Below, piece after piece: positions 16,055 to 57,391 of a DNA stretch of 64,000 nucleotides (positions are counted from its first letter, which is position 1; the number at the start of each line of letters is the position of its first letter). Location of the stretch: assembly GCA_028705495.1 (NCBI GenBank), contig JAQWDK010000010.1, forward strand, positions 507 to 64,506, written 5' to 3'. Under the pieces are notes generated by a model. It made no database searches. It was not told where the DNA came from and saw nothing but the letters and a program-made list of their open reading frames with translations. This stretch comes from Eubacteriales bacterium (GTDB lineage Bacteria > Bacillota > Clostridia > Oscillospirales > CAG-382). A program made the position numbers and the translations under genes.

Positions 16055-17203
16055 ATGCCACAAAACAATACAAATAAAACAGTCTGTGCTTTAATCTGTG
16101 AGTACAATCCTTTTCATAAGGGACACAAGTACCAACTCGATATTTTAAAAAGCAAATTCGACTATGTTGTTTGCATAATGAGTGGCTCGACTGTTCAGAG
16201 GGGCGAGTTTGCAATTGCTGATAAATACCTTCGTGCAAGTGCCGCTGTGATGGAAGGCGCTGACATCGTATTGGAATTGCCATATCCATATTCATCTCTT
16301 GGCGCCCGCGACTTTGCGGCTGCTGGTGTTCATATAGCAATGTCACTTGGGATTCCGACTCTCGCATTCGGGGCTGAAGATAGCATAGACAAACTTTTGA
16401 ATCTAACGAAATTTTTGTCTGATAAAAGTACACGGGAAATTATTATAAATAGAACGAAAGATGAAAAGAACCTTTCTTATCCGCAAGCGAGACAAGCTTT
16501 GGTTTCTGAAGTTTTGGGTTATGATTACGGAGAACTCCTAACAAAACCAAACAATATACTTGCGATCGAATACATTATTGCTGGAAAAGATAAAATCAAC
16601 TATTATCCTATAAAACGAAATAACGAATTAAAATCAGCTACTTTTATTCGCTCACTCTCTGATGAAAACCTAACAAGTGAACTTCCAACAATAGCAGCTA
16701 AACTTTATTCAACTATAAATCGTAGAAGAACAGAAAATTTATCAGCGGCATTTTTGTCAAAGCTTAGAATAGCAGAACTTGAAGAACTGTCGGATATTTA
16801 TGATATTACCAAAGGTTTTGCATCAAGACTAATAAAAGCTGCTAAAAAAGCGAAAAACTACAGAGAACTCATTGAACTTTCAGCAGCCTCGACTGACACC
16901 ACATCAAAAATACGCAGAGCTGTTTTGCACTGCCTTGCAAGAGGTACAAAAAAAGATGCTTTGACAATGCCGAGATATACAAATCTGCTTGCTGCGAAGC
17001 GAGGAAGTCTGTCTTTTCTAAAAAACACAAGGACAGATATAATTACTGTCCTTGCAAAACCTGCACATTATAAAAAACTTGATAGCATTGCTAAAACGCA
17101 GTTTTTGTTATCAGGTAAGGTTGACGACCTTGCCGCACTCTCCGCTGATAAAATCGAAGTCGGAGGTAAATATCTTACCTCATCACCTGTTATTTTCAAT
17201 TAA
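16055..17203 (+). CDS. tmcAL: tRNA(Met) cytidine acetate ligase (YlbM/TmcAL family nucleotidyltransferase)
   Basis: N-terminal ICEYNPFHKGHKYQL (HxGH-type nucleotidyltransferase, characteristic of the YlbM/UPF0348 family). 382 aa. Confidence 0.8.
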   Translation: MPQNNTNKTVCALICEYNPFHKGHKYQLDILKSKFDYVVCIMSGSTVQRGEFAIADKYLRASAAVMEGADIVLELPYPYSSLGARDFAAAGVHIAMSLGIPTLAFGAEDSIDKLLNLTKFLSDKSTREIIINRTKDEKNLSYPQARQALVSEVLGYDYGELLTKPNNILAIEYIIAGKDKINYYPIKRNNELKSATFIRSLSDENLTSELPTIAAKLYSTINRRRTENLSAAFLSKLRIAELEELSDIYDITKGFASRLIKAAKKAKNYRELIELSAASTDTTSKIRRAVLHCLARGTKKDALTMPRYTNLLAAKRGSLSFLKNTRTDIITVLAKPAHYKKLDSIAKTQFLLSGKVDDLAALSADKIEVGGKYLTSSPVIFN

Positions 17204-18531
17204 ATCTGCTCATCTGGCTCGAGTTTGTTGCGGAACACAGTTACAAAGACTGATAGGAGTGCCATGAGCAGCCCGGTTATTAGCATGAGGAACTGTACGC
17301 TTTCGAAACCGATGTTAAATATAACAATTTTATTTACTCCAATAAGCTTAACAAATCCCGTACCGCACATCATACCGATGAGGGATGCAATATTGACATT
17401 GAATGCATAGAATGCCATATAGTTAGTCCGATCAGTAGAAGGAAGGTTTATGTAAGGGAAGTTCGCATAAGCAATTGTTATCGAAACGCTAAGAAGATGC
17501 TGGGTAAGTCTTACTATTAGCATAAGCCAAACATAGTTTTCGTGGTTTACGAAAGAATAAAGAATATATGTAGGACATAAGAAGAAAATAGATTTTGCAA
17601 ATGCAGTGAACCATGATGTTCTACGGATGAGTCTTTTTGATGCTCCTCCGAATATGATAAAGAAGATAAAATAAACCGCAGTAATGACGTTTATAAAAGT
17701 GTATGTAACACCTACATTATCAAGTAGATAAACATTTATTACGGAGGCCGTCAAGCTTGAAGCGAAAGTGTAACAGAACATGACGAACATAGTCAGAATA
17801 TACTTTTTGTGCTTGAAAGGTAAAGTAAAAGTATCACTAAGCTTTATCTTTTTCCCCGGAGTTGACTCGTAGGGAGCTTCATGAGGCTTTGAGAGGGTGT
17901 AGACATCAAGGGCTGCAAAAACAAGTCCGATTACACGAAGTATTGTAATGATTGTCAACTGCATTGGTGAGCCGGCAAGGGAGTCGGCAATTAGTGAGCT
18001 AATGAGTACAACGAGCCCCATCAGTGCATTTGTTATGATATTTGATATATTAAAATAGTCTGCTCTTACATCGTTCGGTAGAAAATTTATATGCCAAACA
18101 GAAAACCCAGAAGAAAAAAGAGAGTTTATCGCCGAGGCAACAAAAACAATTATACTAAATCCAATAAGCTTTTCCTGCTCACCGCGAACAATTTGCGGCA
18201 AAATTGTCAGTCCGCCTATGTTGATAAGATAATATGCAGATCGGCTTATCAGTAAGATTTTTCGCCTTTTAGGAAAACGCTCGAGTATCATCGGCGAAAA
18301 AAGTCCGAATATTGTTGCGATAAGTGGTATAAATGTTATGATACCAGCATTTACGATATTAATTCCATGTCCAAGAAGGAAACCAGAATAAAAAATACCG
18401 CCTGTTAAACTTCCGATAATTCCGGTGAGAATGCTCGACTGAAGCATGCAAAGACGGCCTTTTGAGTTTTTATCTCCGGACATAAACAGATTATAAAACG
18501 CAGTATTTTGAATAAATTTAAGTTTTTTCAT
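17200..18531 (-). CDS. MFS-type transporter (about 12 TM)
   Basis: Polytopic hydrophobic profile with the basic loop FPKRRKILL after TM2. Substrate unknown. Confidence 0.65.
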   Translation of the reverse strand: MKKLKFIQNTAFYNLFMSGDKNSKGRLCMLQSSILTGIIGSLTGGIFYSGFLLGHGINIVNAGIITFIPLIATIFGLFSPMILERFPKRRKILLISRSAYYLINIGGLTILPQIVRGEQEKLIGFSIIVFVASAINSLFSSGFSVWHINFLPNDVRADYFNISNIITNALMGLVVLISSLIADSLAGSPMQLTIITILRVIGLVFAALDVYTLSKPHEAPYESTPGKKIKLSDTFTLPFKHKKYILTMFVMFCYTFASSLTASVINVYLLDNVGVTYTFINVITAVYFIFFIIFGGASKRLIRRTSWFTAFAKSIFFLCPTYILYSFVNHENYVWLMLIVRLTQHLLSVSITIAYANFPYINLPSTDRTNYMAFYAFNVNIASLIGMMCGTGFVKLIGVNKIVIFNIGFESVQFLMLITGLLMALLSVFVTVFRNKLEPDEQI

Positions 18532-18771
18532 TTTAATAATGTTTTAGTATTACTGTAAAGGTTAGCTTTACTACTCTCCATTAATGGTAAGCGGTAGAAC
18601 CATTTGTTTATTGGTTATGATAACATATAGGCGGAGCTTTGTCACCATCAAAAATGCATTATTATTTTTCAAAATGCGTGGTTTTTGTGTTTACAAACAC
18701 GATACTTAATGGTAAGATGATATTATATACTGCATTCACGACTATAATTTAAACATCGGAGATGCACAAAA

Positions 18772-19773
18772 ATGACAACTTGCAACAAAGCTATTCGAAA
18801 CTTTGTTTTATACATCCTTACTTTAGCATCAATATTAGCGATTATATCGAGCTGTTATTCCAATTCTGATAACTCGAAACCACAATCAAGCATCAGTCAT
18901 TTTTATCAAGACAGTAGCCGAGAAGAAATTGGCACATCAAGTCTTGATGAAACTGTTTCTTATATCGATAGCAGTGCAGACGAACTTTCAAACGAGACTT
19001 CACCGGGTGATTTAGAATCTTCTTATGAATCAGAAAGTTCGGTTGAATCAGATATTTCCTCAGAATCAGATACTTCACCAGAATTTGAAACATCCATAGA
19101 AGAATCCCAAAGACCAAAAAAGGATAATATACTTTATCTAACCTTTGATGATGGTCCACACTCTAAAAACACAGTTAAAGTTCTCGACATTCTAAAAAAG
19201 CATAATATAAAAGCTACATTTTTTATTATCGGTGACTGCGCAAAGCGATATCCGAAACTGGTTAAAAGAATATATGACGAGGGTCATGTAATTGCATCCC
19301 ACTCAATGTCGCATAATTACTACCGCCTTTATGAAACAGTAGAGGACTTTGAGGCAGATCTTAAAAAATGGGAGGAAACAATAAAAACTATTATTGGTAA
19401 AGAACCTGAAACACATATTTTTAGGTTCCCGGGTGGTTCCTCAACCCCTTATCAATACGGACCTGCAGAAGATATTATTAAAGCATTGAAGAAACAAAAC
19501 TATTATATGTATGACTGGACTGCAGCAAACGGTGATAAATGGAGAGATGACATGAAACCTGAGGAAACAGTCGATGAATATCTAAAACGATTGCTTCTCG
19601 AAACTGTCCACTACTGTGACTATAAAAAGAAACCTTGTATTATTTTGATGCATGATTCGGTAAACGAAACAGTCGATATGCTTGACTGGGCGCTCACTGA
19701 GTTAGAAGATGAAGGTTATTCATTTGACACACTTGCAAATTTAAACAAGAGTTACCTGTTCCCGCACAAATAA
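18772..19773 (+). CDS. Polysaccharide deacetylase (NodB homology domain) lipoprotein with an acidic Ser/Glu-rich linker
   Basis: Lipobox IISSCY. NodB motifs LTFDDGP, HSMSH, FRFPGG. Confidence 0.85.
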   Translation: MTTCNKAIRNFVLYILTLASILAIISSCYSNSDNSKPQSSISHFYQDSSREEIGTSSLDETVSYIDSSADELSNETSPGDLESSYESESSVESDISSESDTSPEFETSIEESQRPKKDNILYLTFDDGPHSKNTVKVLDILKKHNIKATFFIIGDCAKRYPKLVKRIYDEGHVIASHSMSHNYYRLYETVEDFEADLKKWEETIKTIIGKEPETHIFRFPGGSSTPYQYGPAEDIIKALKKQNYYMYDWTAANGDKWRDDMKPEETVDEYLKRLLLETVHYCDYKKKPCIILMHDSVNETVDMLDWALTELEDEGYSFDTLANLNKSYLFPHK

Positions 19774-23110: not shown

Positions 23111-24196
23111 TTACTTAAACTTTATTACATCCAAAAGAACAGCATGGAGTACAAATCTCTGTTGTGTGTGGATTGCAGAATAGTTTGTGCAGGTGGAGAA
23201 GGTTATAATTTTTGTGTCAGCTTTGATATAGTCTCTCATATCCTTTTTCCAATTATACAGTCCTTTGTCGTAAATACTTTGAAGAAAAGATACCCAGTCG
23301 GAATCTTTGGAAAAATCCTGCTTAACATAATTATCGTACTGAGTTGTTGCGTAGATCGAGAAGGGCTGATATATGTAAACCGAATCAAGGGTGTATATTC
23401 TTATTATTGAAGAGTCAAAAAGCTCCCAAGAACGCTGATCATTCTTAAAGAGCTGAGGAATCATGCCGAACATAGTGCCGTTGGACATATTATGACCGTA
23501 TAAAACAAGGTTTTTTGTTTTGGAGACATTGTTTGACAACCTGTAATCAGCGAAAATTGTACCGCTTTTTACACCGTCGCGACCTCCGTAAGTTCTGTTA
23601 AGATAAATTGCGTTGTCATTTGCTTTAACTACTGGGTAGTCGATATTAGTGTTAGTCATCTGTACCCAGCAATAAAAATCGTCATTAAGAGCTGCGATTG
23701 TTTTTAAATTGTCTTGAATGTCGGCGATATTAGTTATATCATCGAGAGGGAAACCTGCGCTAACATTAGATATATCAAGAATATCACCGATATTTTTGGA
23801 AACATTCGAGTCGTTTTTATGTTTTAGCATACTTAGTGTGTCATTGTATTCATTTTTTGCAGTCATTGCATCGATGCTCCAGTCTACAAGCACACCAACC
23901 GAGTAAACAAAGCCGCTTATGAAAACAAGAAACAGTAAAACTCTAAAGAAAGACCAACGATTTTTCTTCTTTTTCGGTGGATTATGCTCGCTTGAACCAC
24001 CAGAAAAATGACTACTAAAGTTTGAAGTTTTGGTTTTTCTTTGCAGAAGTTGGGATTTTTTCGAAGCTTCGTGGTGTTGTGGTCGGTATGTTTGATCATC
24101 TGAAACGATAGGTATTCCGTTATTATCTGTAACCATATCTTCGATAATATAAATACCCTTGTGTGTTTGCTTTTTCTTTTTCCTGTTTTTAAACAT
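23111..24196 (-). CDS. srtB: Class B sortase paralogue with a ~85 aa N-terminal extension
   Basis: LVLYGHNMSNGTMFGMI and IITFSTCTN. It shares the N-terminal motif and the PPKKKK-TM with the neighbouring sortase. Confidence 0.85.
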   Translation of the reverse strand: MFKNRKKKKQTHKGIYIIEDMVTDNNGIPIVSDDQTYRPQHHEASKKSQLLQRKTKTSNFSSHFSGGSSEHNPPKKKKNRWSFFRVLLFLVFISGFVYSVGVLVDWSIDAMTAKNEYNDTLSMLKHKNDSNVSKNIGDILDISNVSAGFPLDDITNIADIQDNLKTIAALNDDFYCWVQMTNTNIDYPVVKANDNAIYLNRTYGGRDGVKSGTIFADYRLSNNVSKTKNLVLYGHNMSNGTMFGMIPQLFKNDQRSWELFDSSIIRIYTLDSVYIYQPFSIYATTQYDNYVKQDFSKDSDWVSFLQSIYDKGLYNWKKDMRDYIKADTKIITFSTCTNYSAIHTQQRFVLHAVLLDVIKFK

Positions 24197-24334
24197 TTCA
24201 GGGAATATCCTTTTAATGCGGTTGATTTTGTGACTTGGCTATATCAAATACTGTTAGCATTATACAAAATCTTGTCAATAAATACAATGCAAAAGCTAAT
24301 TGTTTTAAAAGTTGTTACATTTTGACTGAAATAG

Positions 24335-24456
24335 AATATTCATCTTGAATTCTGTAATGCTTTAATGGTATAATAGTCGTGCATTTACAATATTCAAATA
24401 ATATTACCACTAATCAGCACGACCAAAGCTTAGGTTTTTGATCAGGTTGCTAATAA
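24335..24456 (+). promoter_or_regulatory. Promoter plus conserved leader module, copy A, upstream of the MATE gene
   Basis: TTGAAT, 18 nt, TGgTATAAT. The following sequence matches the minus strand of 44041..44137: a 22-nt perfect block ATGGTATAATAGTCGTGCATTT, then ATTACCA..AATC.GCACGACC and TCAGGTT..TAATAA. It contains the inverted repeat GTCGTGC / GCACGAC. Confidence 0.6.
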
Positions 24457-24479
24457 TTCGAGTGACGGGAATTGCAAAA

Positions 24480-25841
24480 ATGACAAGGGATTTAACTAAA
24501 GGTAATATAACAAAAACGTTGTTATTGTATTCACTTCCGATGATGGGAAGTGTTATATTCCAGCAGATGTACAACATTGCTGACAGCGTTATAGTCGGCA
24601 AGTTAATTGGAGAAGATGCTCTGGCAACTGTTACAGCATCAATACCAGTAACAATGCTTCTGGTTGCTGTAGCTACCGGTTTTAGTATCGGTTCTTCGGT
24701 TATAATCAGTCAGCAGTTTGGCGCAAAAGACATGACAGCGATGAAAACCTCTGCCAACACTGCTCTGATTTATGCGGCTGGAGTTAGTGTTCTTCTGTCA
24801 GCGATCGCGATGCTCTTATGTAACCCACTGCTAAAACTTATGAACACACCGCAGTCTATATTCAACGATAGCGCAGCCTTTCTTTACATAAACATACTTG
24901 GTTTTGTGTTTTTAATGGTCTATAACACATGCACTGGAATCTTTACCGCACTCGGGAACAGTAAACTTCCTCTATATTTTTTAATTGGTTCTTCGACACT
25001 TAATGTTGTTCTTGACTTGATTTTTGTCTCTATATTCAATATGGGTATACGTGGGGTCGCATGGACAACCGTAATCGCTCAAGGACTAGCAATGGTTTTG
25101 TCTCTAACCGTACTTCTTAAAAAGCTAAAAGAGATAGAGACGACTCAGAAACCTTCGCTTTTTTCAAAAACTGCTGTCAAAAAGCTTAACAAGATCGCAT
25201 TACCAAGCATTCTACAGCAGAGTTTTATAGCAATAGGCAATTTATTTGTTCAGGGTGAAATCAACGGGTATGGGCAGGCTGTAATTGCTGGTTATGGTTC
25301 TGCTGTAAAACTGAATACATTTTGCATAATGAGCATAAATACTTTAGCGAGTGGTATTTCAAGTTTCACAGCACAAAACTATGGAGCGAAACGCTATGAT
25401 AGAATAGAAAAAGGTTATAAGACCGGTATCCTTATTGTTTCGGCTGTCGTTACTCCTTTTATTATTTTATACCTTTTATTTGGTTCGCAGCTTGTAGGTA
25501 TATTTATGAAAGAAGAAAGCGTTCAAGCGTTATCTGTCGGTGTAAATTTCTTAAGAATCGTCTCACCATTCTATTACATTGTCGCAGTTAAGATAATTTC
25601 AGACTCACTCCTGAGGGGTTCCGGAAACATGAGGTCGTTTGTTATTGCAACATTCGCCGACCTTCTTATGAGAGTTATTTTTTTATACATACTATCTTTC
25701 GTTTTTAAAAGCGCGGATTGGCTTTGGGCATCGTGGCCCATTGGTTGGGGTGTTTCAATGGTCATATCGCTTGTGTATGCGCTAAGGCAGATAAAATACA
25801 TGAAGACTCAAACGGATTGTAAGAGTAATCAAATGTGTTGA
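24480..25841 (+). CDS. MATE family efflux transporter
   Basis: MTRDLTKGNITKTLLLYSLPMMGSVIFQQMYNIADSVIVG is a typical MATE N-terminus; 12 TM. ATG 24480 is preferred over the upstream 24438 start. Confidence 0.88.
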   Translation: MTRDLTKGNITKTLLLYSLPMMGSVIFQQMYNIADSVIVGKLIGEDALATVTASIPVTMLLVAVATGFSIGSSVIISQQFGAKDMTAMKTSANTALIYAAGVSVLLSAIAMLLCNPLLKLMNTPQSIFNDSAAFLYINILGFVFLMVYNTCTGIFTALGNSKLPLYFLIGSSTLNVVLDLIFVSIFNMGIRGVAWTTVIAQGLAMVLSLTVLLKKLKEIETTQKPSLFSKTAVKKLNKIALPSILQQSFIAIGNLFVQGEINGYGQAVIAGYGSAVKLNTFCIMSINTLASGISSFTAQNYGAKRYDRIEKGYKTGILIVSAVVTPFIILYLLFGSQLVGIFMKEESVQALSVGVNFLRIVSPFYYIVAVKIISDSLLRGSGNMRSFVIATFADLLMRVIFLYILSFVFKSADWLWASWPIGWGVSMVISLVYALRQIKYMKTQTDCKSNQMC

Positions 25842-27775: not shown

Positions 27776-29077
27776 ATGAGCTATACTGAGATTCATGGAA
27801 TAAACAACAAGCTCTATATGTTCAAACAGTACTTAGCAATGTGTGACGATCTAAAATGTGAGGGGATCTCTCAGACTATCGCAGCGCTCGAAGAAGAAAT
27901 CATTAGGGCTACAGAGACGCTGAAAACTTTAAAACCTGACCCTGTTATGACAGCAAAAGAACCTGATGATTACGACGAAATCAGAGAGCTTTGCGCTCCT
28001 GCAAAAATGCTTTATACAAATCTGCCATCTGATTTTAAGGACAAGCTTAGTGCGGCAATTTTATCACGTTTTGCCGGTTGTACACTCGGTGCGCCTGTTG
28101 AAGGCTGGACAGTAGATCAAATTGAAAATTACGCCAAAGAGCTCGGGCTTCCTATCCCACTAACCGATTATTGGACTGACACCCCTCTAAAGGGAACAAA
28201 AAGATATATCTATTCGAAATTCGAAGACTATACGAAACCATACTTGAACTCTGTTCCATGTGACGACGATGTAGGATTCACAATACTTTCTCTTCTTATT
28301 GCCGAAGAGGGAAAAGGACATGAACTCGATACTGAAGATGTCGCAAAAGCATGGTTAAAATACATAACAGAAGCATATACCGCCGAACAGGCTGCAATGG
28401 ATAACTTGAAAGCAGGGGTTGCTCCCAAAGAAGCGGCTATACCTAACAATCCGTATATCGAGTGGATAGGTGCTGATATCAGATGCGACGGTTATGGATA
28501 TATGGCACCCGGTAATCCGGAACTCGCTGCAAAACTCGCTTATGAAGATGCATATCTTTCACACCGCAGAAATGGCATTTATGGTTCGATGTTTTTTGCA
28601 GCAACCATAAGCGCAGCATTTGCATTAGGTGATCCTATTCTTGCGATAGAAGAAGGTTTAAAGTATATACCACAAGAATGCAGGCTGGCTGATGATGTTC
28701 GCTGGGCGCTTGACATCAGAAAAACAATAAAAAATGCACGTCATGCAGCAGAACTTGTCGACGAGCGTTTCAAAGGGATGCATATTGTCCATACTCTTAA
28801 CAACGCATGCCTTGTTGTTTTTGCTCTTGAGTTAGGTGGTAAAGACATCGGTAAAGTTTTTTCAAATGCAGTATTTATGGCGCATGACGCTGACTGTACC
28901 GCTGCCACAGCCGGATCAATTGCAGGAGCATGTTATGGTATGGAAGCTCTCGAAAAGCATTGGTATGATGTCTTTAACAATAAGGTTTTATCCTTCTATA
29001 ACGGTCCGAGAGAGTATCAGATTGATGATATAATCGAAAGATATTATAAGCTCGCAGAGAAGTCTATTGATAAGTAA
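27776..29077 (+). CDS. ADP-ribosylglycohydrolase (ARH/DraG fold) family protein, cytoplasmic
   Basis: N-terminal ILSRFAGCTLGAPVEGW and C-terminal HDADCTAATAGSIAGACYG match the two metal-binding signature regions of the ARH family. No signal peptide. Confidence 0.8.
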   Translation: MSYTEIHGINNKLYMFKQYLAMCDDLKCEGISQTIAALEEEIIRATETLKTLKPDPVMTAKEPDDYDEIRELCAPAKMLYTNLPSDFKDKLSAAILSRFAGCTLGAPVEGWTVDQIENYAKELGLPIPLTDYWTDTPLKGTKRYIYSKFEDYTKPYLNSVPCDDDVGFTILSLLIAEEGKGHELDTEDVAKAWLKYITEAYTAEQAAMDNLKAGVAPKEAAIPNNPYIEWIGADIRCDGYGYMAPGNPELAAKLAYEDAYLSHRRNGIYGSMFFAATISAAFALGDPILAIEEGLKYIPQECRLADDVRWALDIRKTIKNARHAAELVDERFKGMHIVHTLNNACLVVFALELGGKDIGKVFSNAVFMAHDADCTAATAGSIAGACYGMEALEKHWYDVFNNKVLSFYNGPREYQIDDIIERYYKLAEKSIDK

Positions 29078-38443: not shown

Positions 38444-40423
38444 TTACTTCGCTTCAACGCCGGTTACTTCAAGCTCAATTATGCTGATAAAACCTGCATC
38501 TCCACCCGCTGTACCAAATATTCTGATGCCTTCGCACTCTATTTCGTCAAAAGTAAAAGTATATGAAGTGAAATTACTACCGAAAGAGCTCATGTTAGTT
38601 CCATTCGGATATTCAGGTGATACAGTAGTTTCAATGTCGATCCACTGACCACCCTTGAATGCTTGCAGTTTTAGAGAACCATTTGCAAACCAACCGCCGT
38701 TATTAAAATGCATTCCTTCAGTGAAAATTACAGAGCTGATTTTAAAATCTTCGTAGAAAACATATCCGACAAATTCGTCATGAGCGGACATATATCCAAC
38801 ATAGGTATCAAACTGATCAGTGTTACCGCCGGTCTTTTTACCATCTCTAATAACTTCTAAGTCTTTACTTCCGCTTCCGGTAGGGACTAAATCAGAACAA
38901 ATCGGTACGCCCGCTTCAGCAACATTTCTTACTTGCCCACGATTAGGACTAGTATATGATCCGATCTTTTCGATTTTTATTTCTTGTGTTACTTCAGTGC
39001 TCTGATCATCGTTATTGGTGATGATGCATTTTATTGTATAATCTCCAACTTCATCGTACATGTGCATTGTGTTGCCACTTGAAGTTGATGAACCGTCTCC
39101 GAAGTCACATTCAACCGATTTAATTCCAGTAATATCATGAGCGTTGACGGAAAGAATTAATACATTGTCTTTTACATTATACCCAATTTCAGCAGTCGGC
39201 ATCGGAGGCCACTGTTCATATTCAACTGGGACTATTTCTTCAGAAGTTGTGATTTCCCAGTTTCCATCTGTATTATTAAATCCCTTTGATTCTAAAAGTT
39301 CGAGAGCGAGCTCAAAATTTAGGTCAACAGCTGATTTCATCGTATGTTCTGTAAAGGAGAACTTAAATCCAGTTAAATCGATTTTTGATTTCCATACTTC
39401 CGGAAGCTTTTCAAAACCATAAAAGTTGCCAAGTATAGCGCCTACGCTGGATGGGTTGCAGTCGCTGTCCTGTCCGCACTGCATAGAAATTTGCATCGAC
39501 TTATTGAAATCACCTTCGCCGTAGAGAAGTCCGATCAAAATATAACCTGAATTCATCTTTGCGTCTATATTAGCAGTGCCATTAGCATACCAAAGACAGC
39601 GTTTTGTGGGATCCCATTTTTCATCAAGTTTCTGCCAGCATTCTTGCCATATCATACCTTCACTATGCCATTTTACGATATCATTTATTAATAATCTGAA
39701 CTGTGTGTCCTCGGGTATAGAGGCAATTCCAGCATCAATTATATCTTTATATGAATCTGCAGTAAATGCTGCTGCGTGCATTGCAGTGACAAAAACACCG
39801 CCATAAACGCCATCACCATAGTTCATAATATGTCCTATTTCAAAGGCACGTTCTGCTGCTTCGCTGACCATGCCGGGATAAAGGTGTCCGAGAAAATCAG
39901 CTTCAATTTGCCAGTCGATGTCATCGCTATGGAAGTTATTTGTATAGTGACCGGACATTGGAGCTTCAATACCGTTGCGAAGGTTTTGTCTGCCGATCTT
40001 ATTTGCGTGGTCAAGCCCGAATTCAGAATCTCTGAACTTGTCTGCAAGCTGTTTTAGTGAGCAGTTAACTCCGTACTCCTTCATTGCGTCAATGAAGGGT
40101 AATTCAACATACAGGTCGTCTTGGTATGATACATCGTTTAAATTCAAAGATTCAATGACTGGGACTTTATCATCGGGAATCATAGCTCTTTGATACTGGA
40201 ACTCAGTTGTTGCTCCCCAGACAACGCCCGCTGCTTGACCTACCCAAGAGCCTAATATTTTGTCATAAATCTCGTCCTCAGACAAAGTAAAAGTTATAGT
40301 GCTATTCGACGTTTCGTTTGTAGATGACGATGTTCCATCGGTTGATGAACCATCGATTGTTTGCGTACATGAAGATAGAATGAGCAGTAGAACAACGATA
40401 AAACAAAGAATTTTTGTTTTCAT
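38444..40423 (-). CDS. Exported lipoprotein: ARH-fold domain + PKD domain + discoidin/F5-8C-like C-terminal domain
   Basis: Lipobox ILSSCT. ARH signatures ILGSWVGQAAGVVWG and CGQDSDCNPSSVGAILGNFYG. PKD-like segment CDFGDGSS..HMYDEVGDYTIKC. The C-terminal beta-sandwich ends in ISIIELEV. Confidence 0.7.
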   Translation of the reverse strand: MKTKILCFIVVLLLILSSCTQTIDGSSTDGTSSSTNETSNSTITFTLSEDEIYDKILGSWVGQAAGVVWGATTEFQYQRAMIPDDKVPVIESLNLNDVSYQDDLYVELPFIDAMKEYGVNCSLKQLADKFRDSEFGLDHANKIGRQNLRNGIEAPMSGHYTNNFHSDDIDWQIEADFLGHLYPGMVSEAAERAFEIGHIMNYGDGVYGGVFVTAMHAAAFTADSYKDIIDAGIASIPEDTQFRLLINDIVKWHSEGMIWQECWQKLDEKWDPTKRCLWYANGTANIDAKMNSGYILIGLLYGEGDFNKSMQISMQCGQDSDCNPSSVGAILGNFYGFEKLPEVWKSKIDLTGFKFSFTEHTMKSAVDLNFELALELLESKGFNNTDGNWEITTSEEIVPVEYEQWPPMPTAEIGYNVKDNVLILSVNAHDITGIKSVECDFGDGSSTSSGNTMHMYDEVGDYTIKCIITNNDDQSTEVTQEIKIEKIGSYTSPNRGQVRNVAEAGVPICSDLVPTGSGSKDLEVIRDGKKTGGNTDQFDTYVGYMSAHDEFVGYVFYEDFKISSVIFTEGMHFNNGGWFANGSLKLQAFKGGQWIDIETTVSPEYPNGTNMSSFGSNFTSYTFTFDEIECEGIRIFGTAGGDAGFISIIELEVTGVEAK

Positions 40424-40435
40424 TTGAGTACTCCC

Positions 40436-41392
40436 TTAAGATTTACTGTTTATATTCTTAAAAACGTTGTTAAATTCGTCAAGCGGAGGTTCGCCATGTA
40501 ATTTACAATACTCACTGCTTATGTATGAAGCAAAGGATTTGATTGTATCGATTCCAAGAGAAGTGTAAAATCCCGCATCAGCTGAAATAATGTCAATTGA
40601 AAGAGGTGCTTTGACAGGAGGGTATTTATATCCTGAATACAGAGCGATATCATACCAGTATTCGAGGATTTGAGAATCACATGAAGGAAAAATTTTAAGC
40701 AACTCTTTTAGTAAAGAGACATAATTTTGGCTCTTTTCTTCATTTTGATCTGTTATTGGTTTAAAGTGATTTCTGTCCATTGGGGCAAATTCGAGAAACA
40801 CTCCATCATCCGGCTTAACAGTAGGGACTTGCAAAGCTGAAGCGTATGCAAGATATGACATCCTTGCCTTAGAATTATATGCTCTAACACCTTTAAGCAT
40901 TGCATTAACAATTAACATGTTTTGGTCTGATGGAGAAAGACTGCTACACATATCGCATTCGCAGAAACCATCAAAAGCATCGTCTGTCCAGAAAAAGTAA
41001 TCAAAAGATTCTTGTTTTAGAAGCTTTGCAAGCGTATAGGAATTCTGTGATATAATCTCCAGAGCTTCGCTATTTGAAACACAGCAATTAAGATCGTTAT
41101 TGCGTTTTCCCTCTTTTTCTCTAAAAAGCTTAGGTTTGTCAGAAAACAGCGATCGGGGTAGAAGCCATTCAAGAGCATGAAGTTCGTATTGGATACTTAT
41201 TGCATTATCTTGAAAGCGTGATATTAGTGACCTTTTATCGTTGTCTAATTGTCTTAGAAGGTCGCTCACGCTATCGGAACCTGGAATTGCAATCTTATGT
41301 AATCCAAGGGTAGCAATACCTGCTTTTTTTGACCATTCAATCCATTCTGGTATAAAATCCTCGATAAGTATTACAAGCCCAAGGTTTTTCAT
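40436..41392 (-). CDS. Hypothetical cytoplasmic protein, glycoside-hydrolase-like (possibly DUF4838-like) with a CxCxxC motif
   Basis: No signal peptide; FCECDMC motif. Its start overlaps the YfhO stop (ATGA). The domain name is from memory only. Confidence 0.35.
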   Translation of the reverse strand: MKNLGLVILIEDFIPEWIEWSKKAGIATLGLHKIAIPGSDSVSDLLRQLDNDKRSLISRFQDNAISIQYELHALEWLLPRSLFSDKPKLFREKEGKRNNDLNCCVSNSEALEIISQNSYTLAKLLKQESFDYFFWTDDAFDGFCECDMCSSLSPSDQNMLIVNAMLKGVRAYNSKARMSYLAYASALQVPTVKPDDGVFLEFAPMDRNHFKPITDQNEEKSQNYVSLLKELLKIFPSCDSQILEYWYDIALYSGYKYPPVKAPLSIDIISADAGFYTSLGIDTIKSFASYISSEYCKLHGEPPLDEFNNVFKNINSKS

Positions 41393-43974
41393 ATTCTCTT
41401 TGTCTCGTTATTGTCAGAGTTTGCATCTTCTGATTGTTTGTCTTCAACATCAACCTTCTCATCATTGTCTATTTCTTTGTCAACCTCTCCTGAGAAAACA
41501 GCTTGATAGCTTATTGGTTTAGAGGGGAAGGGAATATAATCTTCTTCATAATAATTTTCTCTGAAGAATTTATATGGTTTATTCTCGGGTTTCCTAAACT
41601 TTCTTACAAGGAGGATATATACAACCCAAACAAGAATGCCGCCGATTGTAAGATAGATTCCTTCCATCATACCTGGTGCTGTGTACTCAAACCTTATTTC
41701 GTTAGCACCCACATCTGCTTTGACAGCCATCAAACCGGAGAAGACTTTAACAATTTCCGCATCATTACCGTTAACCTTCGCGCTCCATCCCGAGTCGATT
41801 GGAACACTGAAGAAAACATAGTTTTCTTCGTCAAGATTTATGATTGAAGTGAAACCCTTGTTGTCATACTCGAAGCTCGAACCAGCGCTCGCTGCTCTGA
41901 GCTTACAATTTGCAGAATAATCATTGTAATCAAGGGACTTCTTTTCAGAGTTCTTTACTTGTTTCATAAACTTTGAAAATTTGTCTGCGTCTTCATCTTC
42001 TACAACAAGATAAGCGGTGGAGTACAAATGCTTTTGTGAGGCAGTTATTTTATTAAATTCCGTAAGAGTCATAAATTCTGTATAAGTATATCCCATTGGG
42101 ATAAAGTCTTCGTTAATCATAACAGTAAAACCGTTCTGTTTACTATGCTCCACGAAACCTTTAGGTTTTACTTTCGATGTTTTTGAATCTTCGATAGCGC
42201 CATATTTAACAGAAAGAAAACCGCGAAGTCCATAAAGTTTCGATTCCGGCCTTGTACCGACACTTCGTTCAACGCTAAAGAGAGGATAGAATTCCATAAC
42301 AGATGGAGGAACTACAGTATGGAAACATCTTATACTCGGAACATCCCAGTAAAGTCCGAGGTTATCAAGCGAATCTTCAAAGGTGTCAATTCGGAAAAAT
42401 TCATCTCCTTCAAATTCCATCTTATATATACCACCAATCGCTTGTTCGCGAAGGAAATTACCGGACCATGAATGACTTCTACCGTAAAATAAGTGATTTA
42501 TACCGTAAATTACAATGGTCGCCATAACTGCGTAAGTAACAAGAGTCTGAAATATTTTCTTTCCTCGGAAATATTTGATGAGAAAATAGGTAATAATCAA
42601 AGAGACCGCGGCAATTAATACGCTCACCCAAAAACGATCCATTTTTGGAGCTTGCCCGAGTTGAAGATTATCACCAGTTTTTTTCCAGCTTAAACCGAGT
42701 GTAATAGCAAAAATAGAACACACAATAGCGTTAAAAGCAAGACCGAATTTAAAGCTTATCTCACGCTTTTCTATCACAACAATTGTAGCTAAAACCATTA
42801 TTAATATCATCATATAGAGTTCGCGTGCATAATATTGATTTTTTAACAAATAGAAAAATGAATGGAGAACCGGAACAAGCGACATAATGAAAAGTGCAAT
42901 GCAAAGAATGGAAATCCAACTCCTTCTTTTTGCTTTGATATAAGAAATTACACCGGCCATTCCGAACATTGGGACCCATGCTGCAAGCGATGCCCACCTT
43001 GCGCCATTTTCGGGGAAAAAGTTTGCTCTAGATGGTATGTCTGGCGGGAAGAAATATGATTGAATAATTGATAGAATTCTATCCCAATAAATTTTACCTT
43101 TACTCATAAAGACAACGTTTGCCCAACCCTTAAATCCGTTTGAATCAACCCTCGGATTATCCAAAACAGCAAGAGCACCAGGTAAAAAGATAATCATGCC
43201 CATAACAAATCCGAGAACAGCTTCGAAAACAAGCCAGAGAAACTTTTTAAAATCAATTTTAAAAGTAGCGTTTAGACTGCGAGCAAAAAAGTAGATAACA
43301 CAAAATACAACTTGTCCAGCAAACATAAAATAATTTATCATCGAGTTGAGCATTACCGCAACAGCGAAAAGACCCTTACGGTTGTTCTGAACAAGTTCCT
43401 CCATGCCGAGAAGCAGAAGAGGGAAAAAAGCTACAACTTCGTGAAATTGGTTAAAGAAAACATTATAAATATTGAAACCGCAAAAAGCGTATAATAGTCC
43501 GCCGAGAACTGCGTAATTTTGATTTTTAACAAAACGTTTTAAGTAAGCATATGAAAAAACACCAGCTGCCATGAATTTCATAATGAAGACGGGACCCATT
43601 AAGTATGGCGCCCAATTTGAGGGGAAAAGGCACATAAACCAAAAGAACGGGCTACCGAGCATATAATATGAGTAGCTACCAATAAAGTTTGAGCCTAAGT
43701 CTGTTTTAAAGTCCCAAAAAATCGAACCATTATGTACGGACTCAATAGCATGGCGATAAAAGGGAATTTGCTGTGCGTTGTAATCACCATAATAGAGAAA
43801 AACGCCTTTGTCAATTATTATAAACGGAAGCATTATCAGAGAAGCAGCAATAAAAGAGTAAAAAAGCACCCTTTTATAATAGTAAAATCGATTGGTTTCG
43901 AACGGATCGATATCAGACTCCTGTATAATATTTATTGAAAAAAAGTTTTTCAGCTTTGATGCCGCATTCTGCAT
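41389..43974 (-). CDS. YfhO family membrane protein (GT-C-like glycosyltransferase) with a large C-terminal extracytoplasmic domain and an acidic tail
   Basis: YGDYNAQQIPFY motif near the N-terminus and more than 12 TM. ATG 43974 has AGGA 9 nt upstream and is preferred over GTG 43992. Confidence 0.8.
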   Translation of the reverse strand: MQNAASKLKNFFSINIIQESDIDPFETNRFYYYKRVLFYSFIAASLIMLPFIIIDKGVFLYYGDYNAQQIPFYRHAIESVHNGSIFWDFKTDLGSNFIGSYSYYMLGSPFFWFMCLFPSNWAPYLMGPVFIMKFMAAGVFSYAYLKRFVKNQNYAVLGGLLYAFCGFNIYNVFFNQFHEVVAFFPLLLLGMEELVQNNRKGLFAVAVMLNSMINYFMFAGQVVFCVIYFFARSLNATFKIDFKKFLWLVFEAVLGFVMGMIIFLPGALAVLDNPRVDSNGFKGWANVVFMSKGKIYWDRILSIIQSYFFPPDIPSRANFFPENGARWASLAAWVPMFGMAGVISYIKAKRRSWISILCIALFIMSLVPVLHSFFYLLKNQYYARELYMMILIMVLATIVVIEKREISFKFGLAFNAIVCSIFAITLGLSWKKTGDNLQLGQAPKMDRFWVSVLIAAVSLIITYFLIKYFRGKKIFQTLVTYAVMATIVIYGINHLFYGRSHSWSGNFLREQAIGGIYKMEFEGDEFFRIDTFEDSLDNLGLYWDVPSIRCFHTVVPPSVMEFYPLFSVERSVGTRPESKLYGLRGFLSVKYGAIEDSKTSKVKPKGFVEHSKQNGFTVMINEDFIPMGYTYTEFMTLTEFNKITASQKHLYSTAYLVVEDEDADKFSKFMKQVKNSEKKSLDYNDYSANCKLRAASAGSSFEYDNKGFTSIINLDEENYVFFSVPIDSGWSAKVNGNDAEIVKVFSGLMAVKADVGANEIRFEYTAPGMMEGIYLTIGGILVWVVYILLVRKFRKPENKPYKFFRENYYEEDYIPFPSKPISYQAVFSGEVDKEIDNDEKVDVEDKQSEDANSDNNETKRI

Positions 43975-44040
43975 TTTTTCTTTTCCTTTCACGACAACTA
44001 ATCTAAAATAGTAAGTTATTATTTAGGACATTATACCATG

Positions 44041-44166
44041 TTATTAACCTGACCTTCGCAAAATCGTAGATTTTGTTGGGTCGTGCCGATTGATGGTAAT
44101 TAATTTGGTTATGGAAAATGCACGACTATTATACCATGTTTCTTTTGCCTTGTAAACAAAACAATT
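44041..44166 (-). promoter_or_regulatory. Promoter plus conserved leader module, copy B, upstream of the YfhO operon
   Basis: On the minus strand: TTTACA, 17 nt, TGgTATAAT, then the same leader as 24365..24456. A second CATGGTATAAT box follows at about 44029-44039. Confidence 0.6.
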
Positions 44167-44216
44167 ACATTGATATAGAATAAAATGAAAATTATAACAA
44201 AATACCCGGAGGCAGT

Positions 44217-44480
44217 ATGATAAAGGGACTTACAAAAACAGTAGTAATAATGAAGTGTGAAAAAGAATCGATCTTTGAGGAAGCATTATTTTTCTTAAAA
44301 GATCCTGAAGCAACCGATAGTGATGATATGGTAACGGTAGCTTCTAAGCTTATTGGACTTGCAGATAAAGAAAAGAAAAGAAATGAAATGATAAAAAAGA
44401 AGTTAATTGGTGTTATAACCTTCGTTTCAGGAGTAGGGGTAGGAATTTTCTGTATGCTTCTTGTTGGTTCAATTAGTTAA
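44217..44480 (+). CDS. Small hypothetical protein with a C-terminal TM
   Basis: RBS GGAGG, 87 aa, TM GVITFVSGVGVGIFCMLLVG. Confidence 0.45.
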   Translation: MIKGLTKTVVIMKCEKESIFEEALFFLKDPEATDSDDMVTVASKLIGLADKEKKRNEMIKKKLIGVITFVSGVGVGIFCMLLVGSIS

Positions 44481-44510
44481 TTAAAATTAAATAACGTATG
44501 CAAATTCAAA

Positions 44511-44545
44511 ACCGTCGTAATAATAACGACGGCTTTGTCATTTTT
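44511..44545 (+). terminator. Rho-independent terminator
   Basis: ccgtcgt / acgacgg stem, followed by ctttgtcattttt. Confidence 0.6.
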
Positions 44546-44758
44546 ACTAATGTACAATTTAACAACATCTTGTGTCTCTGAGCTTTGAAAGACTATATAT
44601 CGTATGGTTGCAGGAAGTATACATAATGCATATGACATAATACAATGGCATAATCACCAAAATCTAAAAAATATAGAAATAGGGCTTGTATTTTTTGATT
44701 AAATGTATTATCATTATGTTTACATTAATCAATTCTTTACTTTGGTGGTATGCAATAT

Positions 44759-46596: not shown

Positions 46597-46678
46597 AATG
46601 ACGGCTCCGCAAAAAGGAGCGCGGAGGTAAAATAGGAAAGGCAAACGGAGTTAACATCTCCGGTGTTTGGGAGAAAAG

Positions 46679-47596
46679 ATGAATAGCCAGGCAGTTAAAA
46701 AAAATAATAATATGACGGAGCTGACAGATAAATTTATCAGCTACTTGTGCGACGTAAAAAAATCCTCCCAAAACACCCTTGACGCTTACAGAAGGGATCT
46801 TGGATCATTTTTGAAGTACGCTGAACGAGAATTTATAAACAGTTTCAGTGATGTCACCGTGGAGTCAGTAGAGGGGTACAAGCAGTACTTGACACAAAAA
46901 GGTCTATCCTCATCTTCGACAAGCCGCTCTTTGTCTGCCCTTAGAAGTCTGTTTCAATATTTAATTATGGAATCTATAGCCGACAGTAATCCGGCACGTG
47001 AAATACCAAATGACAAATACGAAAAAAAGGGACCACAGGTTCTGACAAATAAAGAAATTGAGATTCTTTTATCCCAACCTTCTCTTGATGATACAAAAGG
47101 CATCAGAGATAAAGCAATGTTGGAAGTTTTGTATGCAACAGGTATAAAAGTTTCCGAGCTTATTTCACTTGATGTAGATGATGTGAACCTTAATATGTCC
47201 TTTATTCGCTGCGCTAAAAACGACCGTGAAAGATTTATACCTATGTATCCAATTGCGGTAAAATCCTTATCAAACTATCTCGAGTCATCAAGAAAACTTT
47301 TAATAGTTAATAAAGACGAAAAGGCACTTTTTGTCAATATATCAGGCGATAGAATGACAAGACAAGGCTTTTGGAAAATCCTCAATATTTATGCAAAGCA
47401 AGCGAAAATATACAAACAAATAACCCCTCACTCTCTAAGACATTCCTTTGCCGCTCATCTTCTTGAAAACGGCGCCGATATACATGATATTCAAGAAATT
47501 CTTGGACATTCCGATATATCTTCAACCCAAAGATATGCTCAATTTTTAAAGGATAGAATGAAAAATAGCTATATGAAATTCCATCCACGCGCATAA
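46679..47596 (+). CDS. xerD: Tyrosine recombinase XerD/XerC
   Basis: N-terminal SAM-like domain (FISYL...SQNTLDAYRRDL). Catalytic region HSLRHSFAAHLLENGADIHDIQEILGHSDISSTQRY. Confidence 0.88.
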   Translation: MNSQAVKKNNNMTELTDKFISYLCDVKKSSQNTLDAYRRDLGSFLKYAEREFINSFSDVTVESVEGYKQYLTQKGLSSSSTSRSLSALRSLFQYLIMESIADSNPAREIPNDKYEKKGPQVLTNKEIEILLSQPSLDDTKGIRDKAMLEVLYATGIKVSELISLDVDDVNLNMSFIRCAKNDRERFIPMYPIAVKSLSNYLESSRKLLIVNKDEKALFVNISGDRMTRQGFWKILNIYAKQAKIYKQITPHSLRHSFAAHLLENGADIHDIQEILGHSDISSTQRYAQFLKDRMKNSYMKFHPRA

Positions 47597-49678: not shown

Positions 49679-49694
49679 TAAAATTAAATATATA

Positions 49695-49956
49695 AAGGCT
49701 ATGACGAAGACGGAGTGTAAAACTGCTTTCAGAGAGCCGTCGCTAGGTGCGAGACGGCAGTAGTATACATAAACCTATCACTTCCGAGCCGGAAGACTGA
49801 ATAATTCTTTGTTGAAAACCAAAGAAAAACAGTAAGTTTTCCCGTATGCCGCGTTAAGGTAAAGGCTTTTTAGCCTAAGAGTGGCGCATTGCGCAATTTG
49901 AGTGGTACCGCGGATAAAAACTCCGTCTCAAGAAATTTGAGACGGAGTTTATTTTT
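49695..49956 (+). promoter_or_regulatory. T-box riboswitch leader, probable Ile (AUC) specifier
   Basis: K-turn/stem I base GGCUAUGACGAAG ... CUUCCGAGCC. AG bulge AGAGAG (49731). Distal loop GGUGCGAGA. Specifier AUC-A (49777-49780) immediately 5' of CUUC. F-box-like GCGUUA. T-box AAUUUGAGUGGUACCGCGG (49896-49914). Terminator aaactccgtctcaa / ttgagacggagttt plus a T-run (49918-49956). Confidence 0.9.
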
Positions 49957-56893: not shown

Positions 56894-57391
56894 TTAAATA
56901 GTATATTTAGAGAGAATTCCCGCTACATCATCTTTAGTCAATCTACCATAAACATCATCATTAACAGTGAGGACTGGAGCAAGTCCACAGGCTCCAATGC
57001 AGCGTGTCGCCTCGATGGAATATTTGCCGTCAGCACTCGAACCTCCTTGAGGAATACCGAGAATCTCAGAAATTTTGTTTAATATCTCGCCACTTCCTTT
57101 AACATAACAAGCCGTTCCCAAGCAAACAGAAATTGCATATTTACCTTTGGGGTTGAGAGAGAACTGAGAATAGAACGAAACTATTCCATAAATCTCCTCA
57201 AGAGGTATACCTGTCTCATCGGACACGATTCTCTGGACTTCGATAGGCAGATAGCCATATATTTCTTGGGCTTCCTGCAGTATCGGCATCGTAGAGCCTT
57301 TGATATCTTTGTACTTCTCAATAACTTTTAGGAGCTTTAACTCCTGTTCTTTGGTGCCGTTAAACACGACTGTCGTGAGCTTTTTTTTCAT
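56894..57391 (-). CDS. hydC: NuoE-like [2Fe-2S] subunit of the hydrogenase (HydC/HndA)
   Basis: ISVCLGTACYVKG ... RCIGACGLAP cysteine pattern. 165 aa. Confidence 0.9.
   Translation of the reverse strand: MKKKLTTVVFNGTKEQELKLLKVIEKYKDIKGSTMPILQEAQEIYGYLPIEVQRIVSDETGIPLEEIYGIVSFYSQFSLNPKGKYAISVCLGTACYVKGSGEILNKISEILGIPQGGSSADGKYSIEATRCIGACGLAPVLTVNDDVYGRLTKDDVAGILSKYTI

Follow-up and report, generated by a model that had tools for sequence, protein, structure and literature searches.

The window, by which is meant the whole 64,000-nucleotide (64-kb) stretch of DNA analyzed here, contains two related segments of ~95 alignable nucleotides, one located upstream of a MATE-family transporter gene (copy A) and the other upstream of the YfhO operon (copy B). 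Both copies lie in divergent intergenic DNA, with a sortase gene on the opposite side of copy A and an 87-aa ORF on the opposite side of copy B, and they are oriented alike with respect to the downstream gene, which is MATE on the plus strand and YfhO on the minus strand. The two upstream regions align with a z of 21.5 compared with shuffled sequences, and the core identity is 53/63 (84%). A block of 22 nucleotides, ATGGTATAATAGTCGTGCATTT, is found at 24365–24386 (plus strand) and 44116–44137 (minus strand), that is, exactly twice in the window with 0 expected; when up to three mismatches are allowed, there are still 2 matches as opposed to 0 in 100 shuffles. From there, the similarity runs through the islands ATTACCA-NN-AATC-N-GCACGACC, a short hairpin (hairpin 2), TCAGGTT, and (T)AATAA, the islands being common to copies A and B, and it stops before both start codons. 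In addition, each copy contains an inverted repeat with 0 expected, namely GTCGTGC-N34-GCACGAC at 24376–24423 in copy A and GTCGTGC-N33-GCACGAC at 44080–44126 in copy B. The perfect block, the ~95-nucleotide alignment, the inverted repeat with its spacing of 33 to 34 nucleotides, the islands, and the common orientation were all described in an earlier note on this DNA, and these descriptions hold. The same note assigned a spacer devoid of G to copy B, which is wrong: it is the spacer of copy A that contains 0 G, and that of copy B has a single G as its last base. The features of both loci are collected in Table 1.

Table 1. Features of the MATE locus (A) and the YfhO locus (B), in window coordinates.
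Feature	Position	Strand	Remarks
Locus A unit, lineage-specific, 121 nt, contains copy A	24340..24460	+	Alignment to sister-species contig L002
Predicted promoter, copy A	24345..24374	+	-35-like TTGAAT 24345-24350, TG 24366-24367, TATAAT 24369-24374
22-nt block shared with copy B	24365..24386	+	Extended -10, discriminator, first transcribed bases (predicted)
5' arm GTCGTGC, copy A	24376..24382	+	About -5 to +2, predicted +1 = G24381
3' arm GCACGAC, copy A	24417..24423	+	Polymorphic in L037: A24422 -> G
Hairpin 2, copy A, AU-rich	24424..24440	+	CAAAGC-TTAG-GTTTTTG
3' islands TCAGGTT, TAATAA, copy A	24442..24456	+	Similarity ends here
MATE-family transporter gene, downstream of copy A	24480..25841	+	PF01554, 1.4e-53
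Predicted promoter P1, copy B	44128..44156	-	-35 TTTACA 44156-44151, 17-nt spacer, TG, TATAAT 44133-44128
Locus B unit, 98-nt insertion	44040..44137	-	ATGGTATAAT + AGTCGTGC...TAATAAC; collinear alignment to L042/L043
5' arm GTCGTGC, copy B	44120..44126	-	GTCGCAC in allele L041
3' arm GCACGAC, copy B	44080..44086	-	
Hairpin 2, copy B	44059..44075	-	CAAAATC-TAC-GATTTTG; L041: loop TTT, same stems
P2, ancestral extended -10 of YfhO operon	44030..44042	-	Second AACATGGTATAAT / ACATGGTATAAT
YfhO-family gene, downstream of copy B	41389..43974	-	
DUF4838 gene, after YfhO	40436-41392	-	
ADP-ribosylglycohydrolase-PKD gene, after DUF4838	38444-40423	-	

The genes downstream of the two copies, MATE and YfhO, are non-paralogous. 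ADP-ribosylglycohydrolase-family genes occur in both operons (27776–29077, plus strand; 38444–40423, minus strand), one of them with PKD. Because the downstream genes are non-paralogous and the two ADP-ribosylglycohydrolases are merely 25% identical, a segmental duplication of an operon is ruled out as the source of the similarity.

The similarity between the copies starts abruptly at the extended −10 (TG-n-TATAAT). The −35-like hexamers in front of it are non-homologous, being TTGAAT with an 18-nucleotide spacer in copy A and TTTACA with a 17-nucleotide spacer in copy B; a −35 box in front of each copy had already been recognized in the earlier note. The match to the promoter consensus is 10/12 for copy A and 11/12 for copy B, with the TG present in each, and this strong match points to a putative sigma-A-type promoter, predicted to be active, for both operons. 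The 5' arm of the inverted repeat begins 1 nucleotide past the −10 hexamer in both copies. In sigma-70-type promoters, the usual start is the seventh base past the −10 hexamer. Because of this standard spacing, the transcript is expected to start at G24381 and G44121, respectively, corresponding to base six of the 5' arm. The 5' arm would then be mostly untranscribed, with only ~2 nucleotides of it entering the RNA, so that a hairpin between the two arms would be unavailable to the transcript from this promoter. Since the module carries a very good extended −10, some common expression behavior of both operons is plausible. Two other readings of this region were rejected. An ECF-sigma or sigma-54 promoter based on CGAC and GGCACG has the wrong spacing and is missing the −12/−35 elements. 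An inverton is rejected since its arms would be just 7 bp around 33 to 34 bp that contain no promoter, the −10 box being situated outside the arms.

The origin of copy A can be appreciated from a sister species, whose MATE (contig L002) is 87% identical to that of the window. Window positions 24131–24339 align with L002 479–679, which is the sortase-side intergenic DNA, and the alignment resumes at window position 24461 and L002 position 1983, from where it covers the last 18 nucleotides of the MATE leader and the gene. Between these junctions, 24340–24460, which nearly coincides with the interval given in the earlier note, shows no homology with L002. Hence, a unit of 121 nucleotides stands in place of ~1.3 kb in L002, which consists of the Fe-ADH gene and a divergent promoter region. 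This Fe-dependent alcohol dehydrogenase gene is located between the sortase genes and MATE in L002 (680–1982), and the window lineage is devoid of it. The element is absent upstream of all MATE orthologs compared, which are 87, 75, 74, and 69% identical. The orthologs of 74 to 75% identity (L005 430–656, L006 1780–2003) share a well-conserved upstream region of their own, of ~180 nucleotides (z = 36.6), which is unrelated to the window element and may reflect the close relatedness of the two contigs. A resemblance of the sister-species MATE leader to the leader downstream of P2 in the window was considered and is not significant.

At locus B, the sister-species contigs (L042–L044) were reached via homologs of the neighboring 87-aa ORF, and two of them come from the same samples as the contigs with the 87% identical MATE. 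Over 554 aa, the YfhO of these contigs shares 88% identity with that of the window. They contain one promoter, TTTACA...TG-n-TATAAT, with a short leader, and the element is absent upstream of YfhO. If 44040–44137 is taken out, the window is collinear with L042/L043, and the inserted DNA is flanked by a perfect direct repeat of 13 nucleotides, AACATGGTATAAT. The −35 of P1 is ancestral, being conserved in L012 and L041–L044. The −10 box of P2 (44030–44038), with a predicted start near 44023, lies ~98 bp downstream and is cut off from its −35 by the insertion. In the more distant YfhO ortholog L012 (68%), no arms are found. A tandem duplication at this locus was rejected, the DNA after the second ATGGTATAAT being unrelated to the element. 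Judged from these alignments, the element is derived at both loci in the window lineage, because the sister species lacks it at MATE as well as at YfhO. Conservation among orthologs, on which the earlier note had made its reading depend, is thus confined to conspecific assemblies at locus B, including the divergent allele L041, and does not extend to the sister species at either locus. A third GTCGTG is located at 43990–43995 (minus strand), directly upstream of the YfhO Shine–Dalgarno sequence (TTGTCGTGAAAGGA); the sister species has TTGTTGCGAAAGGA in its place, which makes it part of the ancestral leader sequence. The ORF of 87 to 89 aa that is divergent from YfhO (44217–44480, plus strand; L012 2446–2715; L042–L044) is present in all relatives examined and has a hydrophobic C-terminal segment and no Pfam match.

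We consider it moderately probable that the two copies represent a lineage-specific duplicated promoter–leader segment of the kind termed "putative mobile promoter." A lineage-specific duplication or transposition of ~90 to 100 bp would have created the paralogous promoter pieces A and B, each composed of the extended −10 core and a leader of roughly 80 nucleotides. At the YfhO locus, the 98 bp would have been inserted exactly at the old −10 box under duplication of 13 bp; herein, the old −35 would now work with the newly gained −10 (P1), and the former −10 (P2) would have been left ~98 bp downstream. At the MATE locus, the 121-bp segment would have taken the place of the 1.3 kb that held Fe-ADH together with the former divergent promoter region, and copy A may now be the sole recognizable promoter of the operon. 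Transcription would start from a sigma-A-type TG-n-TATAAT at about G24381 and G44121 and proceed into an AU-rich, largely unstructured leader, most of which would evolve at about the neutral rate. The copying between A and B, in its direction as well as its mechanism, is something that we infer. A recent local duplication without effect in reporter fusions had been named as an outcome that would speak against a shared regulatory element; as for the duplication itself, the similarity does look lineage-specific and local.

How strongly the element is constrained can be estimated from the variation among conspecific strains. Four assemblies have the same copy B, and a divergent conspecific allele (L041) also has the element. 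For copy A, two Logan strains (99.5% identical overall) exhibit up to three SNPs in 92 nucleotides; strain L037 has 21 SNPs in 4.36 kb, of which 3 are located in the 92-nucleotide element, and its 3' arm becomes GCACGGC. Compared with the window, L041 is 98.3% identical in the YfhO coding DNA (third positions 4.1% divergent), 93% in the P2 leader, 92.8% in the 87-aa ORF (third positions 13.6% divergent), 87% in the upstream spacer, and 76.3% in the element (23/97 differences). By this comparison, no other segment diverges as fast as the element, whose rate is at least that of the synonymous sites nearby and apparently near-neutral. Over window positions 41712–44737, the divergence of L041 is mosaic, with YfhO set off from the adjacent leader, intergenic DNA, and 87-aa ORF (76–93%), which suggests a recombination breakpoint near the start of YfhO.

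Not all parts of the element diverge alike. In L041, the island ATTACCA reads ATTATCG and TCAGGTT reads TGAGATT. Invariant among copy A, copy B, and the copy B of L041 are TG-n-TATAATAGTCG, CAAAT, AATC-N-GCACGACC, and the stems of hairpin 2, the latter with 0 changes in 14 positions at 24% divergence (p about 0.02). In all three versions, the −10 core is maintained by selection. Within the 22-mer, L041 differs from the window copies at six positions, and copies A and B are the same. Outside the 22-mer, copy A has diverged most, and the B of the window and that of L041 each carry changes of their own. This pattern fits a tree with the B alleles as sisters, in which a short tract would have been homogenized between A and B at a later time. 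Under uniform decay, a run of 22 matches in a ~75%-identical alignment of 95 nucleotides has a p of about 0.04 by a rough estimate, so that extra constraint or conversion appears to be needed, which need not be an operator. The 22-bp tract is probably explained by a constrained core promoter together with a short gene conversion by which the window genome made A and B alike.

The arms of the inverted repeat could alternatively be the half-sites of a DNA operator, which we regard as unlikely. In such a system, a lineage-specific repressor or activator would bind GTCGTGC (−5 to +2) and GCACGAC (+37 to +43), which are separated by about four helical turns and would lie on the same face, and the protein would block initiation or early elongation and thereby unite the operons of MATE and YfhO in one regulon. 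In neither copy does the inverted repeat contain a mismatch; it overlaps the predicted start, and its center spacing of 40/41 bp is held despite an indel in the spacer. Moreover, there is the third GTCGTG next to the YfhO RBS (43990–43995), GCACGACC is retained in both window copies and in L041, and both operons are envelope-related and contain an ADP-ribosylglycohydrolase-family gene, which fits co-regulation. However, the 5' arm of L041 reads GTCGCAC, with two of seven positions changed despite the high identity of the YfhO coding DNA, the 3' arm of L037 is altered as described above, and neither locus of the sister species has the sites. Among 30 flanking genes scanned against Pfam, there was no DNA-binding regulator, the presence of which would be supportive but is not required. 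No other stable site is found in the 64 kb, where GTCGTGC alone occurs 7 times compared with 3.25 expected; since 5 of 100 shuffles reach 7, it is not clearly enriched. The pattern is also not found in 185,579 species genomes, the source species not being among them. For an operator, single half-sites of 7 bp at a distance of 40 bp are an unusual arrangement. Repressor operators over the transcription start, which act by roadblock or occlusion, resemble the present arrangement in having one arm over the predicted start and one downstream of it; the differences are the 7-bp half-sites spaced by 40 bp, the mutated arm in a conspecific allele, and that neither a cognate regulator nor a regulon is found here. 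Of the shared cis-regulatory element proposed in the earlier note, the homologous promoter-proximal module stands, and the regulon is weakened by arms that are changed in conspecifics and by a sister species without the element. A perfect palindrome with the same hexamer as the arms, CACGAC-N-GTCGTG, is present at 57365–57377 inside the 5' end of the ORF 56894–57391 (minus strand) and is probably coincidental.

Further copies, a search for which had been proposed as the way to define a regulon, were found neither in the window nor in 20 related loci nor in public collections, which are devoid of the source species. Within the 64 kb, blastn-short and a sequence model (R1) run with filters off yielded no stable third copy, and in the 20 related loci, which include those of the sister species, the same two methods recovered the known copies only. 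An unstable R1 match of 10.7 bits (rough E of 0.03) at 18701–18748 (minus strand; TATAGTCGTG ... TTACCAT) is located between an MFS transporter gene (17200–18531, minus strand) and a polysaccharide deacetylase gene (18772–19773); it fragmented when a smaller region was searched again and is probably a chance match. The pattern GTCGTGCAT-N20-32-AATCNGCACGAC gives 13 matches in the 185,579 species genomes, which is about the chance number, most of them in GC-rich genomes and none similar to the element. TGCATTT-N16-22-TTACCANNAATCNGCA gives 9 matches in JGI metagenome contigs, all by chance, two scans of viral contigs give one chance match each, and blastn against plasmids and phages gives no match. 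The window's own copies were not recovered from the genome and metagenome collections, which shows that the source species is absent there.

These searches also bear on a miniature mobile element, a reading that we hold to be improbable. It would be a nonautonomous element of 85 to 98 bp that brings along a −10 box or restores one upon its insertion at promoters, under a target duplication of 10 to 13 bp. That both loci have gained the element in comparison with the sister species and that the insertion at locus B is clean, with a perfect 13-nucleotide direct repeat, are in line with it, and at two copies per 64 kb, a genome would be expected to contain many. However, no terminal inverted repeats are present at 24340–24460 or 44040–44137, the GTCGTGC/GCACGAC pair being internal. 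No duplication flanks copy A, the left end of which contains the very ATGGTATAAT that would be the "target" at locus B. No copies are found in the public collections searched, and no transposase was found among the scanned flanking genes, in which the sole recombinase is a XerC/D-like integrase (46667–47596). Correia elements of Neisseria, ERIC, RUP/BOX of streptococci, and REPIN are likewise ~100 bp in length and intergenic, can supply a promoter, and show presence/absence polymorphism among close relatives. They differ from the present unit, which has no terminal inverted repeats and no consistent target duplication, is seen in two copies, and has no family members in the collections searched. 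There is only an outside chance that the 85- to 98-bp unit is an undescribed promoter-carrying mobile element of an uncultured Clostridia lineage, which would insert with precision at extended −10 boxes, or the operator of a lineage-specific regulator.

The reading of the element as a cis-acting leader RNA, in which a protein, a small RNA, or a ligand would recognize AUUACCA..AAUC.GCACGACC, the small hairpin, and UCAGGUU and thereby control stability, elongation, or translation, is very improbable. By its geometry, the sole good promoter would leave nearly all of the 5' arm out of the transcript. The 5' leader hairpin suggested in the earlier note is not supported on the same ground, and a consensus fold and covariation are missing as well. 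Scanning the whole window with Rfam 15 at the gathering threshold gives one T-box and one tRNA, nothing else, and nothing at copy A or B; sensitive scans of both copies (E up to 10) return noise with E of at least 0.3, far under the gathering scores, so even below E of 10 there is no Rfam match. The earlier statement that the element belongs to no known riboswitch class is in agreement with this. The T-box leader is full-length (49692–49933, plus strand; 105 bits, E = 3.7e-22) and lies just upstream of a 766-aa ORF (50014–52314). Folding of the single sequences is unremarkable, with z values of −1.1 and −1.3 for the two copies, and the arm helix in these folds closes an unstructured loop of 33 to 34 nucleotides. 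From the predicted +1, RNAalifold gives no consensus fold (−0.85 and −0.79 kcal/mol). Covariation in the GTCGTGC/GCACGAC arms, which the earlier note had asked for, is not seen: counted over the arms and hairpin 2, 92.5% of the cells are paired compared with 90.2% in shuffles, with one double change, and in L041 (GTCGCAC...GCACGAC) two arm pairs are broken with no compensating change. Neither terminator-like sites (0 after the element at either copy) nor an evident RBS-sequestering structure or other expression platform is found, and at copy B, the second promoter, P2, sits between the element and the RBS. ATTACCA and UCAGGUU are not retained in L041. In favor of an RNA, the hairpin-2 stems are the same in the three versions (A, B, and B of L041), with the loops TTAG, TAC, and TTT, which is weak support; there is a 5-bp helix with a C-G, U-G, U-A series in the three versions, and in L037, the substitution of G for A would create a G-U pair if the arms paired. 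The Rfam leaders at MATE genes, guanidine-IV/mepA and ykkC, resemble the element in being located upstream of a MATE transporter gene. The element differs from them in that it lacks a covariance-model match, a conserved fold, a terminator, or another evident expression platform and in that its putative 5' strand lies outside the predicted transcript. Three further candidates were rejected: small ORFs in the element on either strand, whose frames differ between the copies; a RAT/antiterminator, to which the resemblance is superficial; and longer imperfect inverted repeats from the −35 regions to the leader, whose geometry differs between A and B and which were treated as chance in AT-rich DNA.

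The duplicated promoter–leader segment, in comparison, has documented counterparts. Thousands of pairs of "putative mobile promoters" upstream of unrelated genes have been documented (PMC3575422), and they are defined by an identity of ≥80% over ≥50 nucleotides between upstream regions in one genome (PMC3575422). Copies A and B fall within this definition with the identity and z score given above, and their adjacent coding sequences, MATE and YfhO, are non-paralogous as it demands. They also resemble putative mobile promoters (PMC3575422) in forming an upstream pair of ~84% over 63 nucleotides next to non-homologous genes, in showing neither recognizable mobile-element machinery nor an Rfam match, and in that one copy displaced the earlier promoter of a gene, which amounts to promoter capture. 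They are unlike them in that the A/B block starts at the −10, without a −35, and spans the leader, and in that copy B is a precise insertion with a 13-nucleotide duplication. The survey of Matus-Garcia, Nijveen & van Passel in 2012 sampled the region from −150 to −50 relative to the start codon (PMC3575422).

If the element were mobile, it would duplicate 10 to 13 bp at extended −10 boxes and rewire envelope-related operons, and under this or the operator reading, it would have been caught shortly after its spread to two loci. Should it prove multicopy in the full genome, it would deserve description as a new small repeat, either mobile or regulatory. With the reuse of promoter DNA, one event would have rebuilt the MATE promoter where the sister species has Fe-ADH, and the other would have shifted the −10 of YfhO by 98 bp upstream. 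The two loci thus provide a natural example of promoter capture, in which both junctions are resolved against the sister species and a divergent conspecific allele serves as a check of constraint. A striking block shared between upstream regions is not necessarily the sign of a regulon or a riboswitch, and the comparative data herein point to the recent reuse of promoter DNA.
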